IMG/VR virus record: IMGVR_UViG_2695420380_000007 | Length of the DNA stretch: 25,520 bases | Source of the DNA: a virus | Lineage: Duplodnaviria; Heunggongvirae; Uroviricota; Caudoviricetes | Strand: one strand, 5' to 3' | Part shown: positions 12,788 to 22,720 of the stretch, piece by piece | Layout: each line of letters begins with the position of its first letter | How positions within the stretch are numbered: position 1 is the first letter of the stretch | Notes under the pieces: model-generated | What the model was told of the DNA's origin: nothing | Database searches by the model: none | Seen by the model: only the letters and a program-made list of their open reading frames with translations | Made by a program: the position numbers and the translations under genes

Positions 12788-14766
12788 ATGATGGCAAAGC
12801 GTAACAGGCTGATACAAAGGGCTTTTGTTGTAAGAAAACGGCCAGANNNNNNNNNNNNNNNNNNNNNNNNNNNNNNNNNNNNNNNNNNNNNNNNNNNNNN
12901 NNNNNNNNNNNNNNNNNNNNNNNNNNNNNNNNNNNNNNNNNNNNNNNNNNNNNNNNNNNNNNNNNNNNNNNNNNNNNNNNNNNNNNNNNNNNNNNNNNNN
13001 NNNNNNNNNNNNNNNNNNNNNNNNNNNNNNNNNNNNNNNNNNNNNNNNNNNNNNNNNNNNNNNNNNNNNNNNNNNNNNNNNNNNNNNNNNNNNNNNNNNN
13101 NNNNNNNNNNNNNNNNNNNNNNNNNNNNNNNNNNNNNNNNNNNNNNNNNNNNNNNNNNNNNNNNNNNNNNNNNNNNNNNNNNNNNNNNNNNNNNNNNNNN
13201 NNNNNNNNNNNNNNNNNNNNNNNNNNNNNNNNNNNNNNNNNNNNNNNNNNNNNNNNNNNNNNNNNNNNNNNNNNNNNNNNNNNNNNNNNNNNNGATGCGA
13301 CGGCCACAGGAAAGAAAGGCCGGGCGAAAAAACTCAAAAATCATTTCACGCCGGAACAGATTGCCGCACTGCGGGAAAAAATCATCAGCAGGCTGGAGTG
13401 GCATCAGCGGGGCTGGTTTGACTCCCTGACGCTTTGCAGGGAAGCCGGGATACGTAACAGGATGATCCTGAAATCCCGACAGATTGGGGCGACCTGGTAT
13501 TTTGCACAGGAAGCACTGCTGATGGCGCTGCGTGACGATGTGGCACAACCTTACCAGCGTAACCAGATTTTTTTGTCTGCGTCGCGTCGTCAGGCGTTCC
13601 AGTTTAAAAGCATTATTCAGAAGGCCGCGGCTGAAGTCGATGTGGAGCTGAAAGGGGGCGATAAAATCATCCTCTCCAACGGCGCAGAGATGCATTTTCT
13701 CGGCACTTCTGCTGCGACGGCGCAATCTTACACGGGCAATTTTTATTTTGATGAATTTTTCTGGGTCAGTCGCTTTGCTGAACTGCGCAAGGTGGCTGGC
13801 GCTATGGCAACCCTCAGCGGACTGCGGCGCACCTGCTTCTCCACGCCATCCACCGAAACGCACGAGGCATACGCCTACTGGAACGGCGACCGCTGGAACG
13901 AGAAAAAGGCCGCGCATAAACGCCAGCGTTTTTCTGTGGACTGGAAAACGCTGCATAACGGGCTTATCTGCCCTGACCGGACGTGGCGGCAAATTGTCAC
14001 GCTGGAAGATGTGGTTAATCACGGCTGGAAACACACCGATATTGATGAAATTCGTGATGAAAACACCGAAGACGAGTTCCGCAATCTCTATATGTGTGAG
14101 TTTGTCCGCGAAGGGGAATCGGCATTTAACCTGAATATCCTGATTGGCTGCGGTGTTGACGGATACGACGACTGGAAAGACTGGAAACCCTTTGCCCCCC
14201 GCCCGATGGGGAATCGTCCGGTATGGATTGGGTATGACGCAAACGGCAGCAGTGGTAACGGCGACAGCGGCGCTGTGTCCGTGGTGGTTCCTCCGGCTGT
14301 TCCTGGTGGTCGTTTCAGAACGGTGGAGACGCGACGCGTTCAGGGGCTGGAATTTGAAGAGCAGGCCAGAGTTATTGAAGAGTTCACGTATCGCTACAAC
14401 GTGGAACACATCGGCATTGATGCGACGGGCGGGCACGGGGATGCCGTCTATCAGATAGTGAAACGGTTTTTTCCCGCCGCCATCCCTTACACCTTCACGC
14501 TGTCATCAAAACGGTCGCTGGTACTGAAAATGCTGCAAATAATGCGTGCCGGGCGGTGGGAATACGATCGCGCCGAACGCGAGCTGGTTGCGGCCTTTAA
14601 CGCCGTGCGTAAGGTGAAAACACCGGGCGGTTTTATCACTTACGAAACGGACCGCGCGAGGGGGATCAGCCACGGCGACCTTGCGTGGGCAACCATGCTT
14701 GCTGTCATTAACGAACCGATTGGCGGCGAAGGAGAAAACGAGCGTTTCACGGTTATGGAGTTCTGA
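12788..14766 (+). CDS. P: Terminase large (ATPase) subunit P; 5' end uncertain because of N-run 12847-13293
   Basis: Unambiguous coding from 13294 (KSRQIGATWYFAQEALL... to stop at 14766). If the N-run is an artefact with a 2-nt overlap (ga), the frame joins ATGATG at 12788. ATGA overlap with Q. Confidence 0.7.
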
Positions 14767-15812
14767 TGAGCAGAAAAAATAAAAAAGTGCGCATGAGTTC
14801 ACGCATTGATCTCGCTGATGCGCTCAGGAAAGAATCGTCGCTCAGTGCATTCACATTTGATGGTCCTTACCGCCTGACCGGGCATGACCTGCTGGACAAT
14901 ATGTACTGTGCTGATAACGGGCGGTGGTATGAAACCCCGGTGGACTGGTACGGTCTGGCAAGAGCTGCCCGGCAAACGTCCTGGCATCAGTCTGCGCTTT
15001 ACTTTAAGCGCAATGTATTGCTCGGCTGCTATATTCCGCACCCGCTGCTTTCCCGGCAGGATTTCTCGGCGCTGGCGCTGGACTGGTTTGTGTTCGGTAA
15101 CGCATTCCTTGAGCTTCGGAGCAATATGCTCGGCGAACCGCTTAAATTACGGCACGCCCTGGCGAAATACATGCGACGCGGAAGCGATCTTGAATCATGG
15201 TGGTATGTGCAGGATGGCAAGGATGCGTTTCAGTTTCGTCCTGGCAAAGTGTGCCACCTGATGAATCCGGATATTAACCAGGAAATCTACGGCATGCCGG
15301 AATATCTTGGCGCATTACTCTCGGCCAGCCTTTCTCATTCGGCGGACATGTTCAGAAAACTGTACTACGACAACGGATCCCACGCCGGGTGCATCATCTA
15401 CATCGGTGCAGCGCAGGTAAACCGCGAAAGCATGGACTCCCTGAAAGAAACGCTACAGGGGGCACGTGGTGGTGGTGCGTTTAAAAACGTGCTCATTCAT
15501 GCGCCCAACGGGGGCAAAGAGGGGGTGCAAATTTTGCCGTTCCAGCAGATCACCGCAAAGGATGAGTTCATGAATGTTAAGGCGGCATCCCGTGATGATG
15601 TGCTGGCTGCGCACCGCGTTCCGCCGCAACTGATGGGGGCGATGCCGGGCGAAAAAAGTGCGTTTGGTGATGTGGAGAAGGCCGCGCGGGTTTACGCAAT
15701 TAACGAGCTGATGCCCGTCATGGAGGCCATGAAGCACATCAATGACTGGCTTGGCGAAGAGGTGATCCGCTTTAACCCTTACGCACTGTTAGACACCCAG
15801 CCCACATCCTGA
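14766..15812 (+). CDS. Q: Portal vertex protein Q
   Basis: 348 aa, ATG 14766-14768 overlapping the P stop; size and position (last gene before the presumed cos region) match P2 gpQ. Confidence 0.8.
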   Translation: MSRKNKKVRMSSRIDLADALRKESSLSAFTFDGPYRLTGHDLLDNMYCADNGRWYETPVDWYGLARAARQTSWHQSALYFKRNVLLGCYIPHPLLSRQDFSALALDWFVFGNAFLELRSNMLGEPLKLRHALAKYMRRGSDLESWWYVQDGKDAFQFRPGKVCHLMNPDINQEIYGMPEYLGALLSASLSHSADMFRKLYYDNGSHAGCIIYIGAAQVNRESMDSLKETLQGARGGGAFKNVLIHAPNGGKEGVQILPFQQITAKDEFMNVKAASRDDVLAAHRVPPQLMGAMPGEKSAFGDVEKAARVYAINELMPVMEAMKHINDWLGEEVIRFNPYALLDTQPTS

Positions 15813-15862: not shown

Positions 15863-16303
15863 GACTCTCCAGCTCCTGTATCAGTCAGATAATTTCACGA
15901 CGCTTTCCTGCTGATTGCCATCATCGACAGTCAGACTCTTACGCAATCCCACCTCGTTGACTGCATATTCTCGCCGTCTCAGTGCGATTTTGACGGCCTT
16001 ACCTTTCACCCCATCAAATCAAAAGCCCTCACGTCTTTTTCACGCTCAGCGTGAGAAATACAGCCATTCTGTTGTATCTCTGCGACATCGTTCAGGGAAT
16101 GCTATTTACCCCCTGAAACGCGGGCTGTTCCCCCGTCACCTGCGCGCAGAAAAAACGCGTTTTTTTGTGCATGCACGGATCCTTGACGGATCCAGCCGCC
16201 ACGCGGGCCGGAAGGGCAAAAAGTCGTTCAAAAAAATTGTGCAAATTTGTGCACTATTGTGCATTTATAAAATCAACTAAAAAACACCTAGTGTGACTTA
16301 CCT
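15863..16303. other. Non-coding, palindrome-rich region between Q and the cargo operon; candidate cos/packaging region
   Basis: No credible ORF. Palindromes at 16040-16054, 16150-16165 and 16167-16176; CGGATCC direct repeat at 16176-16182 and 16187-16193; G-rich 19-mer 16122-16140. P2 cos lies next to Q (established knowledge). Confidence 0.4.
16237..16263. repeat. Three direct TTGTGCA repeats at exact 10-bp phasing
   Basis: TTGTGCA at 16237-16243, 16247-16253 and 16257-16263, immediately downstream of the stop of the last cargo gene. Confidence 0.6.
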
Positions 16304-16489
16304 CTACCACTCGATCGGCACGTAGTCATTAAGTTCCGGAGACCAATTGCACTTTTCACATCTGTGTTTTCCATTCTGGCAGATACATAAACGATAACGG
16401 CCACAATGCGGGCACCCATTTTCACCATTATCATAATCACCGAGCGACCATTCCTGCATAAGCAGCTCTTCTTCATCATCATTTAGCAT
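16304..16489 (-). CDS. Small Cys-rich (zinc-ribbon-like) protein, function unknown
   Basis: 61 aa; ATG 16487-16489 preceded by AAGGGGGA; CPHCGRYRLCICQNGKHRCEKC gives a CxxC...CxC...CxxC pattern; acidic N-terminus. Confidence 0.55.
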   Translation of the reverse strand: MLNDDEEELLMQEWSLGDYDNGENGCPHCGRYRLCICQNGKHRCEKCNWSPELNDYVPIEW

Positions 16490-16503
16490 TAATCCCCCTT
16501 GAG

Positions 16504-16743
16504 CTATTTACTCTTCTCGGCCCTCAAAATCATACGAGAACCATCATCCAGCTCCCAATTAATTTCACCGCCTTCTGCCATGACTAGATGCCAAACGAGT
16601 TGAGCGGCCTCGTTGGTTACATCGCGACCGCGATCATTTCCTACGCGGCGTTTTGTTCCGTCTCCTAAGTCACGCATTTTTGCCAATACGATGGTTTTTG
16701 ATAGCGGTGAAAAACCAAGCTGTAGTCGTGCTGAATTACTCAC
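16504..16743 (-). CDS. Hypothetical protein (79 aa)
   Basis: GTG start preceded by AGGGGG with 6-nt spacing; overlaps the stop of the upstream 174-aa gene (GTGA), suggesting translational coupling. Confidence 0.5.
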   Translation of the reverse strand: MSNSARLQLGFSPLSKTIVLAKMRDLGDGTKRRVGNDRGRDVTNEAAQLVWHLVMAEGGEINWELDDGSRMILRAEKSK

Positions 16744-17264
16744 TGGCTGCCCCCTTTGTACTGTGTTAACTCTTCCTGCTCCTGCATCATGCGATTGACC
16801 TGAACGCGTGTGCGTCGAACGGCAAAATTAAATTGAAACATGAGCCGGAACATTTCTGATGCTTCCGTGTGAGCATCACGGATAGGTGACAGGCGGTACA
16901 GTTCTGCCTCCGTAGCTTGTTGAATCAATGACAGATCAAATTGAAGTGCGGGTCTGGTACATTTTGCACATCTGGCAGCAAGCTCCGGTATTAGTCTCTT
17001 AACGAAGGTGTTTTGCACCGCTTTGTTGATTTGTGTCTGCATCCAAATCGCAAATTTCAGCGAACGCATAAGTTTGATAGCCTCGGGCAGCGGCAGATAG
17101 ATCATGCTGGTAGATTTGGGTGGTTGGTGAACCATCTTCACGGATACGCGATTTCGCAGCGTTCGGAAAATCGTGTTCCCAACAACAGCTTCTACGGATA
17201 CAGGACAGGGAGCCAGACCAGCCCGCAGTGCTTCTTTCATTAGCATGTATTCGTATTTTTTCAT
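16740..17264 (-). CDS. Hypothetical protein (174 aa)
   Basis: ATG 17262-17264 preceded by GAGGAA; 60 nt downstream of parR; no family recognised from the sequence. Confidence 0.55.
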   Translation of the reverse strand: MKKYEYMLMKEALRAGLAPCPVSVEAVVGNTIFRTLRNRVSVKMVHQPPKSTSMIYLPLPEAIKLMRSLKFAIWMQTQINKAVQNTFVKRLIPELAARCAKCTRPALQFDLSLIQQATEAELYRLSPIRDAHTEASEMFRLMFQFNFAVRRTRVQVNRMMQEQEELTQYKGGSQ

Positions 17265-17324
17265 CGTGTTTTCCTCGTGCGGGGCGACAGTGCACCCCGA
17301 TAAAATTAAAAGCCGTCAAATTCG

Positions 17325-17636
17325 TCATTCAGGAAATAATGCCCGGATATTCCCTGCTATCTGACTGGTTATCTGTGCGGTTGGTACTGGCTGTGGCACG
17401 GGGCGTTCTGTCCTGGTTTGTGTCACCGATAACGCCTCATCGTCAGCCCATGCAGCCAGTCGGTAAGCCTCTGCTGGATTCATTTTCAGAAGTGCCAGCC
17501 CGGCCAGAAAAGCCACGCGTTGGCCGCTTTTGCGGGCTTCTGGTGTAAGGCTGCCCAGCCAGGCGCATGCTTCGCTTTCGTTCTTGACGGCCGCAGGCTT
17601 CAGATAGAAACTTATCCGTCTGGTTGGTGTCGTCAT
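17325..17636 (-). CDS. parR: ParR-like centromere-binding protein (ribbon-helix-helix partition adaptor)
   Basis: ATG 17634-17636 preceded by AAGGAG, 4 nt after the parM stop; 103 aa; RRISFYLKP...EARKSGQRVAFLAGLAL resembles R1 ParR/StbB (from memory). The longer track ORF 17325-17771 overlaps parM. Confidence 0.65.
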   Translation of the reverse strand: MTTPTRRISFYLKPAAVKNESEACAWLGSLTPEARKSGQRVAFLAGLALLKMNPAEAYRLAAWADDEALSVTQTRTERPVPQPVPTAQITSQIAGNIRALFPE

Positions 17637-17640
17637 TGGT

Positions 17641-18600
17641 TTACTCCTTGTCCATTGCGTACAGCCCATTAACCAGAGCAAACTGTGGCACCCCGTCCGC
17701 GATGAAAGTCGCATTAACTCCGCAGGCTTCGCGGATAGCGGGTGCCACAATCTCCGCCCCTCCACCGACAACCATCACCCGCCCGTAACCCGAAAAACCC
17801 GCCAGCGCGCGGATCACGCGTTGTTTCAGTGTTTCTTCCTTTTCACGAATAACCGCCATCAGGCTGGCGTAATGCGCGTCATTGTGGATGTGCTGGCGCA
17901 GCCAGGCTTCATCATGGCGATGTTCGATAATGGTATTGGCGATGTGGTGACTGGTGCGCATACCGTTAGTGGCCATCACCGACAGTACGGCATCGGCCAT
18001 CAGAGAAACGCCTACGTGTGGATCGCAAAACACCTGGCTGATACCTGCCAGTTGCCCCTGAACCTTTGCCACATCCAGCGTGGTTCCGCCCAAATCCACA
18101 ATCAGCAGGGATTCAAACGGACTCATGTCAGCCAGTGCCTTAAAGCCAGCCGGAATGGATTCAGGCATAACCCGCACGTTACGGATAGTGAATGCTTCGC
18201 CGTTCTGGTACTCCACCGGGCGCATAACGTTCGCTTTTTTGCGGTTGATGTTGGCCATGTCCGGCTGTGCGTTTGTGTCGAAATACTCGCTCAGTGGCAG
18301 GGTGACAACCACATCCACCTCCTGTGGCGTGATGCCTGATTTGACCAGCGCGTGATGAATGGCAATGACATTTACATCGCTGTACTGGTATTGCGTGTCG
18401 GTTGTCTGGACAAAGCGATCGCTGACCGGATCAAAACCATAGCGCACGCCATCAAGCATGTAGTTCGCGGGCTGCATGCCACCGAACGGCGCAGACCATT
18501 CCGACTTGAAGCTGTTCGGGCTGATGGCGTTGCGGCGTTCGCCGTTCTCAGTCCATGCCAGCTTGATGTTGGTGGAGCCGTCGTCGATACAAATTTTCAT
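17641..18600 (-). CDS. parM: ParM/StbA actin-like segregation ATPase
   Basis: 319 aa, ATG 18598-18600 preceded by AAGGA; shared motifs with R1 ParM recalled from memory: IDDGSTNIKL, ISPNSFK, YSDVNV, NRKKAN, VMPESIPAG, LLIVDLGGTTLD, VMVVGGGAE. Confidence 0.85.
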   Translation of the reverse strand: MKICIDDGSTNIKLAWTENGERRNAISPNSFKSEWSAPFGGMQPANYMLDGVRYGFDPVSDRFVQTTDTQYQYSDVNVIAIHHALVKSGITPQEVDVVVTLPLSEYFDTNAQPDMANINRKKANVMRPVEYQNGEAFTIRNVRVMPESIPAGFKALADMSPFESLLIVDLGGTTLDVAKVQGQLAGISQVFCDPHVGVSLMADAVLSVMATNGMRTSHHIANTIIEHRHDEAWLRQHIHNDAHYASLMAVIREKEETLKQRVIRALAGFSGYGRVMVVGGGAEIVAPAIREACGVNATFIADGVPQFALVNGLYAMDKE

Positions 18601-18630
18601 GTCGCTTTTCCTTATGTTGATTAATTAATC

Positions 18631-18743
18631 GTTTACGGGATTCTGAAATCCCGTTTTTGCCTGTTTTGTGCGCGCTTCATATATCGCTGCGCGTTTTTTG
18701 CTCATTTACGGGATTCGTGAGTCCCGTTTCTGTCTGTTTTTTG
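18631..18743. promoter_or_regulatory. Pair of about 40-bp direct repeats, each with a hairpin-forming palindrome, flanking a candidate parM promoter
   Basis: tttacgggattctgaaatcccgttt (18632-18657) and tttacgggattcgtgagtcccgttt (18705-18729), each followed by a T-rich CTGTTTT tract. Between them, on the minus strand, candidate -35 TGAGCA and -10 TATATG with a 16-nt spacer. Confidence 0.5.
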
Positions 18744-21558
18744 TTTCCACTGGTCAGGCCACCCCGCAGCAGGTCTGCTTTGCGGCGGGCGCGTTCAGTG
18801 GTTTCACTGATTCTCTGTGCGTGCTCTGCGTCGCGGATGGCGCGCAGCATGTCAGAAAGCACGGTAACGGGTGTTTTCATGGTGTTCTGGTCCTGCTGAA
18901 GTGTGGATGCCAGGCGTGCGGCGGCTTCAGGGTCTGATGCCCCCAGCTGTGTCAGATAGCTGGCGACCGGGTTATGGCGGATCTCCGTGCTGCTTACGCC
19001 ATGATTACGGCTCAGGCGCTGCCAGAGCTGCGTGATTCGGCTGTCCGGGCGGGTATCCGGTTTGCGTACAATTTCAAATCCCTGCGGTGCAATGATGCTG
19101 CCGTCAACGTACAGACTGCCGCCCCGTAACAGGTGCTGCATCTGTTGTTCACCGATATGCAGGCCGAGAGATTCAGCAGACTCCCGCCATTCTTTAGCGA
19201 GTAATTCGTGGTTATCAGGCAAAGGCCGCTGCTGTTTGCGGCTCTGTGTCCAGCTCTGCATTTCATCACTGCTGTTTTTTGCCTGTTTGTCACGAAGCGA
19301 ACGCATCAGCGCCCGGCGTTCGTGCCGTTTCAGTGAGCGCATCCATTCATCCACATCAACGCCGTCAGGGAGCTGCGGCCACGGTGCTGGCCGTTCTTCC
19401 GGCTGTTCTGTCCCGTTGTTGTCCGTTTCCTGTACACGGGGACAGTTATTGCCACGAGTCCAAGGGGCGGCAGGGCCGCCCTGAAGGTCAAAACCATTTT
19501 CGCGGGCGCTGTCTTCCGCTTCCGGTTTGCGTCTTACCAGCTTCCAGTTATCCGGATGCGTGCACACACGGNNNNNNNNNNNNNNNNNNNNNNNNNNNNN
19601 NNNNNNNNNNNNNNNNNNNNNNNNNNNNNNNNNNNNNNNNNNNNNAAATCTGTACGCTCTGTTCGCCGTAATCGTTCAGCTCATCGGCGAGGTCGTAGGC
19701 GGTGCGAATCAGGTAGTCTTTGCGTGGAACAAGTACGCCGCCCTGTTTCTCTATGTAGGTGNNNNNNNNNNNNNNNNNNNNNNNNNNNNNNNNNNNNNNN
19801 NNNNNNNNNNNNNNNNNNNNNNNNNNNNNNNNNNNNNNNNNNNNNNNNNNNNNNNNNNNNNNNNNNNNNNNNNNNNNNNNNNNNNNNNNNNNNNNNNNNN
19901 NNNNNNNNNNNNNNNNNNNNNNNNNNNNNNNNNNNNNNNNNNNNNNNNNNNNNNNNNNNNNNNNNNNNNNNNNNNNNNNNNNNNNNNNNNNNNNNNNNNN
20001 NNNNNNNNNNNNNNNNNNNNNNNNNNNNNNNNTCGATGCCATCCACGGCGCGGCTGTCCAGGTTTTTCCCGATGTAGGTGGCGATGTAGCTGGTTGGCGT
20101 GCCTTTTGAGCCGTCTACATACTCCGCCTTAAAGCGCGGAGTTATGTCATCGCCCAGCTCGTGACGATCTTCCTGAATGGCAATATCGCGGGTGTGGGAC
20201 ACAATGGTGTCGATTTCTTCCGGATGAGCAAAGACCATCATATGCCAGTGCACGGTGCCGTCATGGTGAGGCTCCGCCGTGCGGATGCCATACCAGCGCA
20301 GGCCGTCGCGGTTCAGTTTTTTGCGGACCGTCGCAAAAAACGTGTTAACCAGGTAATCGCTGGAGTCGCGCATTGTGGCCCCGTTCCATTTGGGATTCGG
20401 ATGACCGTTCTCCGTTGTGGCGTGGTATTTTGACGGGCAGGTGACAGTCAGAAACACCGCTTTGTCGCCACGGGCTTCGGCCAGAAGTTCCAGCCCCTTC
20501 ATGGTGGCCATCATTTCTGCCTTACGGTGAACCGGGTTACTTACTCCCGCGTAATACACCGTCTCGAGATCAATCGTGAACCCGTCTTCATTTTCCAGCA
20601 TGAAACTTTTCAGGAAATCGCGTGTTTTCTCGCGCTGTGCGCGAAACTCGCTTAACGCGTCCTGGCTCAGATAGGGCGATGTTTTTCTGGAAACCAGACA
20701 GGCGGCGCGAAGTTGTTCTTCTCTCCACTCGCAACGTAACAGCCACAGTTTGCGTTTCCACCATTCCGCACAGGTCAGGCGAAGGATTGCGCCCGGCAGC
20801 AGTTCTGTGTCCGGTTCGTGCCTCCGGTCTTTGTCTGTTGTCAGTGCGTCATAATGCGGAGGCATGGCGTGTAAGTGTAACGCCATGCGGGCCAGCATCT
20901 GATACGCCTTCAGCGTTACATCCATGGTCAGCTCGCCATCAGTCGCGCCAAAACCATCGCAGAGTTTTTCGAAGGTGCTGCTGAACATCGCCGCCGTCAT
21001 GGTGGCCAGCGTCTGTATCTGGTGTTTGTTGAGTTGCGGCAGGTAAAGCAAATCGTCCAGGCGTTCACGTCCGGCAAGGGAGCGATAACCCGGTGTCAGC
21101 CAGTGTCCGTCAGTGCGATCCAGACGTTCGAATATTTTGCGCAGGGTTCCGCGTGCATAGCGTTCCGCCTGCCAGCTCTTTTTGCCTTTCCGGCGATCGG
21201 CTTCCTGTTTTTTGCGCAGGAAGGAGAGGTGGCGAATAAGCGGATCGCGCAGATAGGACGGCAGCAGGCGCAGCGAGGCCATGGCTTCATCCACCGCGCC
21301 GCGTGCCTGTTTTCTGGCGTCTCCTGCCAGTGTGATGGTTTTGTCCTGTTTTTCCTGTGCGTCCAGGCTTTTATTAATCAGGTTGCCCAGTGGCGTGGCG
21401 GAGAACGCCGCATCAGCCATTTCCTGGCGGCGCTCGTTCTCTGCCCGGTGGGCATCCAGCCAGGAGGAAAGCGCGGATTCAGGAGCGGGGATCCCCGTTC
21501 CTTCACGCCCCACTGCGTGGCGCGGTTGTTGCCAGTCCCTGATGTACTCTGCCGTCAT
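18677..21558 (-). CDS. A: Replication initiation endonuclease A (rolling-circle HUH type), interrupted by N-runs 19572-19645 and 19762-20032
   Basis: N-terminal ORF 19681-21558 (ATG 21556-21558) has the HUH motif HWHMMVF. Segment 19646-19761 encodes a clean peptide that joins the N-terminal frame if the 271-N run is removed. Assignment of ORF 18677-19567 as the C-terminus is inferred. Confidence 0.75.
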
Positions 21559-22603: not shown

Positions 22604-22720
22604 TTATTCTTCAGTGAAAAAGCGTTCAATCTTTTTTACTGAATTAATAATTCGCATAATCCCAATGGCGCAGACCACCGAAATAATCANNNNNNNNNNN
22701 NNNNNNNNNNNNNAAGCCAT
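22604..22720 (-). CDS. Possible small hydrophobic protein; interrupted by N-run 22690-22713
   Basis: Hydrophobic C-terminal peptide IISVVCAIGIMRIINSV; start ambiguous. Confidence 0.2.
   Translation of the reverse strand: MAXXXXXXXXXIISVVCAIGIMRIINSVKKIERFFTEE

Follow-up and report, generated by a model that had tools for sequence, protein, structure and literature searches.

The closest described setting for the genes studied here is the cos-proximal hotspot between gpA and gpQ of P2-like phages, which carries old-tin and several new validated systems (Rousset et al. 2022, PMC9122126). Defense-associated genes occur in 49% to 81% of P2-like elements (PMC13586616). In about one in four P2-like phages, this position is occupied by a putative partition system, for which Rousset et al. 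suggest plasmid-like maintenance, and one entry in their Table S5 consists of StbA, Plasmid_stab_B, a hypothetical protein (WP_000759755), and Ead_Ea22 (PMC9122126). A second point of comparison is the exo-xis “ea” region of lambdoid and P22-like phages (orf60a, orf61, orf63, orf73, ea8.5, ea22, and ead), where Ea22 has been reported to be pro-lysogenic (PMC3824215, PMC7093339, PMC9239242).

Here we analyzed a DNA stretch of 25,520 nt (the window; IMG/VR virus record IMGVR_UViG_2695420380_000007), in which three small genes encode proteins of 174, 79, and 61 amino acids, referred to below as p174, the DUF7446 protein, and p61. In strain A0 34/86, the p174 homologue is annotated as the hypothetical protein WP_000759755. 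The element that carries the trio is a P2-family prophage of the P88-like type (Xuanwuvirus, Peduoviridae) and not P2 itself.

Like the exo-xis region, the trio is made up of small co-directional genes with frequent stop/start overlaps, and both have frequent, here putative, zinc-binding motifs and no enzymatic domains. The likeness extends to gene content. In a Lederbergvirus and in Salmonella phage 29485, the DUF7446 gene itself occupies the early region, with erf/bet on one side and ead/ea22 genes on the other; p174 is usually paired with an Ead_Ea22 protein; and in relatives, Ead_Ea22 and ClpX-type zinc-finger proteins are encoded among the cargo that follows parR. No trio protein itself matches Ead_Ea22 (PF13935) at E <= 1, and the location differs, in that the trio occupies a cos-proximal position in a P2-family genome, after A-parMR, and not between exo and xis. 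With the P2 hotspot systems (old, tin, and those of Rousset et al. 2022), the trio shares the gpA-gpQ position and the high turnover, but it has no similarity to old, tin, or PADLOC entries, the validated systems have much larger proteins, and its components belong to phage early-gene pools rather than to defense islands. We favor, with a probability of roughly 60%, an explanation in which the locus is a mosaic of accessory cassettes that encode small binders of the early-gene kind.

Prophage context and cargo turnover

Along the minus strand, the gene order runs from a cox-like gene through A, parM, parR, p174, DUF7446, and p61 to a terminator, and a cos-side spacer of ~490 nt separates this terminator from the portal gene Q on the plus strand (Table 1). 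The initial annotation had placed the trio between A and cos/Q, where P2 has tin and old, and the locus does occupy this cos-proximal hotspot (PMC9122126, PMC13586616). The P2 cos sequence GGCGAGGCGGGGAAAGCAC is absent from the window even when 3 mismatches are allowed. A 296-aa open reading frame at 18677-19567 is the C terminus of A (matches to phrog_6857 and phrog_91). Upstream of parM there are only two 42-nt palindrome-containing repeats, compared with the repeat array of a type II parC. A scan of genome contigs with ParM returned only 3 loci. An SOS-controlled antirepressor resembling Tum of phage 186 was considered and rejected, given that no LexA box lies near the cargo and that the immunity region is of the P2 C/Cox type.

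Swapping of cargo at this site had also been anticipated, and it is evident in the relatives: among 67 ParMR-bearing loci, the interval between parR and the portal gene ranges from 1.0 to 4.2 kb and is hypervariable after parR, with at least 34 arrangements. Most of the cargo in these relatives consists of small genes (Ead_Ea22, a ClpX-type zinc finger, a ~104-aa family, and an Rrf2-like regulator). Some relatives carry larger cargo that is defense-like or counter-defense-like, including a pair of 360-aa and 734-aa proteins (AAA+/peptidase S8), an HTH-IrrE protein together with a 183-aa protein, and a Mom-like protein.

Table 1. Features of the A-Q region, in coordinates of the window
Feature	Coordinates	Strand	Description
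Portal Q	14766-15812	plus	Other border of the hotspot; phage portal protein in relatives, with a Pfam Phage_portal match in one of them
Terminator-like hairpin and T-run	16239-16254	minus	Closes the cargo transcription unit; from terminator scan, repeat search, and sequence
p61 gene	16304-16489	minus	61 aa; ATG start; SD AAGGGGG 4 nt upstream
DUF7446 gene	16504-16743	minus	79 aa; GTG start; SD AAGGGGG 6 nt upstream
29-nt recombination junction	16736-16764	minus	3' tail of p174 (..YKGGSQ, stop), SD AAGGGGG, and GTGA overlap
p174 gene	16740-17264	minus	174 aa; ATG start; SD GAGGAAAA upstream
GC-rich hairpin CGGGGTGCACTGTCGCCCCG	17280-17299	minus	In the 60-nt parR-p174 spacer; without U-tract; from sequence
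ParR	17325-17636	minus	103 aa; Pfam Plasmid_stab_B, E 5e-23; phrog_2515; 312-nt gene in relatives
ParM actin-like segregation ATPase	17641-18600	minus	Pfam StbA_N and ParM C-terminal domain, E 1e-68 to 3e-82
Replication endonuclease A	18677-21558	minus	Split by masked N runs; upstream border of the hotspot; so annotated in relatives

Gene layout and expression

Three minus-strand open reading frames with ribosome-binding sites had been called here, and the sequence agrees. Their proposed translational linkage holds for the first two genes, in which the TGA stop of p174 and the GTG start of the DUF7446 gene share the tetranucleotide GTGA, but not for the third, which begins 14 nt past the TAG stop of the DUF7446 gene. 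All three are confirmed as genuine coding genes by homologues of conserved length and by dN/dS ratios, which in comparisons with diverged relatives were 0.18 to 0.42 for p174, 0.08 to 0.16 for DUF7446, and 0.04 to 0.11 for p61. Purifying selection thus acts on all three genes (0.04 to 0.42 overall).

A scan of the minus strand from A to position 16254 revealed no strong promoter and no credible terminator, and neither the parR-p174 spacer nor the sequence ahead of the trio contains a promoter-like site. The sole promoter-like match lies within the DUF7446 gene, and one match is fewer than expected from shuffled sequence. Because no terminator or clear promoter intervenes, the cargo is probably produced together with the replication and partition genes. 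The hairpin that ends the unit lies inside a TGTGCA-repeat palindrome. A ParR-regulated promoter upstream of parM could drive the cargo in lysogens, in the fashion of defense genes.

The three protein families

None of the three proteins had been recognized in the initial annotation. This stands insofar as no function can be given for any of them, whereas the 79-aa and 61-aa proteins do belong to catalogued families.

The 79-aa protein is a member of Pfam DUF7446 (PF24233), with a score of 61 bits against a cutoff of 24.1 (E 9.7e-17, profile positions 2 to 67 of 70), and it also matches phrog_1578 (E 2e-32). Its homologues fall into at least 372 protein clusters, most of them 78% to 96% identical to the query, and the carriers include P22-like and related temperate phages, other tailed phages, and phage-like plasmids of ~90 kb. 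In addition to the early regions described above, the gene is found in the small-gene arrays of Bas82, SopranoGao (which encodes an integrase), and STGO-35-1; on a 93-kb phage-like plasmid, it neighbors an ead/Ea22-like gene. Overlaps of 4 nt with the neighboring gene are frequent around DUF7446 (55 of 85 loci on the upstream side and 38 of 85 on the downstream side), and the overlap seen in the trio therefore reflects a general property of such arrays and is not the sign of a dedicated module. A literature search for DUF7446, PF24233, the PHROG identifiers, and the WP accessions found nothing.

The 61-aa protein, p61, aligns with positions 1 to 60 of 60 of phrog_24897 (E 2.6e-46) and has homologues in 36 protein clusters with conserved cysteines. 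An acidic N terminus is followed by a putative C4 zinc ribbon with the pattern CxxC-x14-CxxC (C26, C29, C44, and C47); across 19 aligned relatives, C26 is present in at least 90%, and C29, C44, C47, and an extra C35 are invariant. The match to Pfam Zn_ribbon_IS1595 (17.1 bits) is below the cutoff of 25.4. Distant relatives of p61 sit within small-ORF arrays of unrelated phages. The occurrence of both the DUF7446 and p61 families in co-directional small-gene arrays of many tailed phages is thereby shown.

For p174, no match was found in Pfam, PHROGs, NCBIfam, or PADLOC, by tblastn against 50,697 phage records, or in a profile search of the PDB at E <= 10. The family comprises only 8 clusters among 5.8 billion proteins, and a profile search of 1.84 billion representatives recovered only 3 family members. 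The protein is an enterobacterial ORFan that is basic and, according to a low-confidence prediction, largely helical. Of 5426 complete E. coli genomes, 29 carry the gene; the next gene is ead/Ea22-like in all 29 and DUF7446 in none. The same succession is found in a 70%-identical metagenomic relative, the downstream gene in relatives matches Ead_Ea22 (PF13935) with an E value of 1e-31, and the two genes overlap by 4 nt in both E. coli loci inspected (n = 2). Wherever a full-length locus was recovered, p174 follows parMR. Its role is probably that of a helper restricted to certain lineages, most often paired with an Ead/Ea22-like protein.

Assortment and probable mosaic structure

The exact trio was found in five other records, of which one is Shigella sonnei GCA_900160585.1 and the remaining four are IMG/VR contigs. 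Over 3.9 kb, four of these records are 99.9% to 100% identical to the window, which points to one recent lineage; in the fifth, an otherwise near-identical prophage, p174 is split by an IS3-family element. The trio is restricted to these near-identical Shigella/E. coli prophages, and elsewhere each gene has other neighbors: p61 or p174 accompanies DUF7446 in 4 of 86 DUF7446 loci, all of them the trio contigs. Among the 5426 E. coli genomes, p61 is found in one (FDAARGOS_943, where it is unannotated by PGAP), following DUF7446, with a 75-aa protein and a ClpX-type zinc-finger protein encoded farther upstream. In Salmonella P2-like prophages, p61 is 90% to 97% identical and is the last gene before cos, as it is here, 430 to 530 nt from the portal stop; these prophages have a portal of ~73% identity, no parMR, and cargo encoding a 136-aa or a 532-aa protein. 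Co-occurrence across unrelated elements, by which a co-inherited system can be recognized, was not found for the trio. Independent assortment of the three genes is thus shown, and we judge it likely that each of them is an accessory cassette in its own right rather than part of a three-gene defense system.

The limits of DNA homology locate the breakpoints. A prophage with the order parMR-p174-Ead (L001 type) is homologous to the window from 17700 to 16736 and again from 16263, and FDAARGOS_943 is homologous from 16764 to 15700, its homology stopping also at 17324 on the parR side. Homology to the Salmonella P2-like prophages is confined to 16519-16110, which covers p61 and the terminator flank (88% identity). 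The resulting breakpoints at 16736/16764, ~16263, and 16519 fall on gene boundaries. The hairpin at 17280-17299 belongs to the p174 cassette, since the L001-type homology spans it and that of FDAARGOS_943 stops at 17324. The 75-aa protein encoded upstream of DUF7446 in FDAARGOS_943 is unrelated to p174, yet it ends in ..QHKGGNQ followed by the stop, which is the tail of the p174 family. Such a shared C-terminal-tail linker would promote cassette exchange.

We propose that 16304-17264 may be read as the distal end of an A-parM-parR-cargo string in the A-Q variable region of a P88-like prophage, assembled as a mosaic of independently mobile cassettes joined by short conserved junctions at gene boundaries. 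One cassette would consist of p174 and its upstream hairpin, and the other of DUF7446, p61, and the terminator flank, with p61 and its flank also moving alone.

Possible functions of the cargo

Structure prediction gave no usable fold for these proteins, and so we infer the mechanism. The proteins are small and free of known domains, and DUF7446 and p61 are strongly conserved across many phages of Enterobacteriaceae, which favors single proteins that bind host targets. We speculate that the three products are small nonenzymatic binding proteins, each probably acting singly on a conserved enterobacterial target. The effects could include host takeover, counter-defense, or tuning of the lysis-lysogeny decision, for which the lambda exo-xis genes offer a precedent (PMC3824215, PMC7093339), as does the binding of RNA polymerase by Orf73/TraR (PMC9239242). 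A mechanism based on host- or defense-modulating binders is tentative, its odds being somewhat short of even.

A more specific version of this idea, possible although we hold it to be unlikely, is that DUF7446 and/or p61 represents a widespread but unrecognized early phage protein with a conserved enterobacterial target (either RNA polymerase, much as for TraR/Orf73, or a component of a defense system, in which case it would be a new anti-defense factor) or that p174 and its downstream partner form an exclusion pair. Lambda Orf73 and F-plasmid TraR are small C4 zinc-finger proteins that bind the secondary channel of RNA polymerase. p61 is similar to them in size, in having an acidic N terminus ahead of a putative C4 zinc motif, and in being carried by mobile elements, and among PDB profiles it has weak, nonsignificant similarity to the zinc ribbons of TFIIB, L37ae, and RpoM (E 0.14 to 0.36), of which RpoM and TFIIB are RNA polymerase-associated. 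Unlike TraR, p61 has a 14-residue spacing between its cysteine pairs and only ~24 residues before the first cysteine, with no long helix of the TraR type. Furthermore, p61 has no Pfam match to zf-dskA_traR at E <= 1, and no trio protein has a TraR/DksA domain.

The initial annotation had proposed that the trio, alone or with ParMR, forms one undescribed defense or exclusion module. This proposal is not supported, in view of the independent assortment of the genes, the lack of PADLOC matches, and the presence of the families in the early arrays of other phages. There is a weaker form of it, in which at least one of the genes provides a lysogen with anti-phage defense or superinfection exclusion, expressed, for example, from the parMR promoter and blocking incoming phages like tin and old of P2. 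The site itself, with its validated old-tin and new systems (PMC9122126), the share of P2-like elements that carry defense-associated genes (PMC13586616), the defense-like cargo after parR in relatives, and the fast cargo turnover all argue for it. Against it, searches of PADLOC-DB 2.0.0 at E <= 1 gave no match for p174, DUF7446, p61, ParR, ParM, or the C terminus of A, and no enzymatic or defense domain, of the kind expected in an effector, was found in the three small proteins with Pfam, NCBIfam, or PADLOC. OLD combines an ABC-ATPase with a TOPRIM domain, and P2 Tin has ~250 aa. Neither fits the trio, in which there is no ATPase or TOPRIM and the proteins have 61 to 174 aa (tin was judged by size). 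The “hp + hp + hp” system of Rousset et al. (E. coli E1114, pFR109; anti-P1) was likewise rejected, on the basis of length, because its proteins in Table S2A are several times longer. In P22-like and lambdoid phages, DUF7446 genes also belong to the early-left operon, which is repressed, and in other tailed phages to small-gene arrays. No promoter of its own was detected for the trio, the genes assort independently, and the IS insertion noted above inactivates p174. We therefore regard a defense role for any of the three genes as doubtful.

It is improbable that the trio is an accessory to ParMR partition or to A-dependent replication, such as a centromere-binding adaptor or a copy-number regulator of an episome. 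Its position directly downstream of parR, the probable cotranscription, and the location of p174 after parMR in every full-length locus are consistent with such a role, as are the deposition of the P88-like genome H23 as a 34.5-kb plasmid and the plasmid-like maintenance suggested by Rousset et al. (PMC9122126). However, ParMR is found in ~1300 E. coli genomes (95% to 99% identity band), compared with 29 for p174 and 1 for p61, so that ParMR, being common, does not depend on the rare trio genes, and DUF7446 and p61 are widespread without parMR. In plasmid R1, ParM, ParR, and parC suffice for type II partition, and a system of this type requires these three alone.

A role of p61 as a packaging or cos-associated accessory is very improbable and was rejected: p61 is cos-proximal in two P2-like lineages, where its flank is co-conserved, and one diverged relative has likely terminase and portal genes immediately downstream, but the ~8 portal and 6 terminase genes within 3.5 kb of 31 diverged p61 loci (several of them P2-like themselves) are close to chance by estimate for a ~40-kb genome and show no clear enrichment, p61 is absent from most P88-like and P2-like phages, and it has no HNH or terminase motif.

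Implications for hotspot cargo in P2-family phages

The mosaic of accessory cassettes that we favor calls for caution in defense discovery based on hotspots, as the cargo of the A-Q hotspot is not all defense. In the ParMR-bearing P88-like branch, the cargo appears to be drawn largely from an early-accessory pool that is common to lambdoid phages and phage-like plasmids and to be reshuffled at short junctions on gene boundaries. The trio is uncharacterized accessory cargo, and both its kind and its hotspot are already known; there is nothing surprising in this for a phage specialist, and no long-standing question is made testable by it. Nevertheless, DUF7446 (at least 372 clusters, dN/dS of ~0.1) and the putative zinc-ribbon family are under strong constraint and recur widely among phages of enterobacteria, and both are reasonable low-cost candidates for anti-defense or host-takeover screens.

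Variable cargo at the post-parR site

Several relatives carry other cargo at the post-parR site that holds p174 (the 174-aa ORFan following parR), the DUF7446 gene, and p61 (a 61-aa zinc-ribbon-like protein) in the window. A Mom-like protein (L104), a pair of AAA+/peptidase S8 type (L080), and an HTH-IrrE protein with its partner (L071) occupy this same position, and the site thus mixes defense-like with counterdefense-like genes.

Upstream of the DUF7446 gene, two unrelated proteins, p174 and a 75-aa protein, end in a common C-terminal tail (QHKGGNQ or QYKGGSQ, followed by the stop), which is accompanied in both by a Shine-Dalgarno sequence and GTGA (window, 16736-16764; L003, 3541-3600). At the sequence level, this combination looks like a conserved linker that would mediate cassette swapping. 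In one relative (L107), p174 is broken after approximately codon 54 by an IS3-family element, while the remainder of the prophage is near-identical to that in the window; as read from this insertion, prophage carriage does not need p174.

Coordinates of features in the window and in the compared loci
Feature	Location	Remarks
TGTGCA-repeat palindrome	window 16233-16258	AAAATTGTGCAAATTTGTGCACTATTGTGCA; directly 3' of p61; overlaps a terminator-like hairpin
64-aa ORF	window 16288-16482 (-)	alternative frame; near-complete overlap with p61
Direct repeats (n = 2)	window 18629-18670 and 18702-18743	42 nt each; 81% identity to each other
N runs (masked sequence)	window approx. 12790-13330, 19570-19650, 19760-20040, 22690-22720	
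IS3-family element, ~1.26 kb	L107 3131-4388 (IMGVR_UViG_2850808358_000008)	100-aa OrfA and 300-aa OrfB
HTH-IrrE (Peptidase_M78) protein and 183-aa partner	L071 6421-8074	
360-aa and 734-aa pair	L080 8655-11938	AAA+/peptidase S8 type
Mom-like protein	L104 8947-9477	Pfam match below threshold (22.7 bits vs 27.1)

Conservation and annotation of p61

The p61 gene of Escherichia coli FDAARGOS_943 (L003, 3108-3290; NZ_CP065615.1, 21547-21754) is 100% identical to that in the window, and RefSeq/PGAP annotates no gene under this match. Annotation probably overlooks this conserved small gene systematically. A greedy ORF caller picks the overlapping 64-aa ORF over p61 on account of its greater length; conservation and dN/dS favor the 61-aa frame, and the longer ORF is an artifact. 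The TGTGCA-repeat palindrome downstream is kept along with p61 in Salmonella P2-like prophages and may be a protein-binding site in addition to a terminator.

Sequence quality and the A-parMR region

N runs in the window break the terminase gene, the replication endonuclease gene A, and some early-region ORFs, and A is listed as two ORFs because of these interruptions. One compared contig (L023; NZ_JBQPOM010000071.1, 226 kb), labeled "Vagococcus sp. WN89Y," includes a locus from a P88-like prophage; the ParM encoded there shares 98% identity with that in the window, and one Ead_Ea22 gene makes up the cargo. Vagococcus is a Gram-positive genus, and the label on this assembly probably reflects contamination or mislabeling.

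Of the two direct repeats, one falls in the spacer between A and parM and its counterpart within the 3' end of A, and both contain a palindrome with an 8-bp stem (ACGGGATTC..GAATCCCGT). These repeats are candidates for a parC centromere or ParR operator on either side of the parM promoter. A-parMR is also present on a record deposited as a plasmid (NZ_CP148288.1; E. coli from a cat), whose 34,461 bp correspond to a P88-like genome size. An episomal, ParMR-supported state has been suggested for these phages (Rousset et al. 2022, PMC9122126), and this plasmid record fits such a state.
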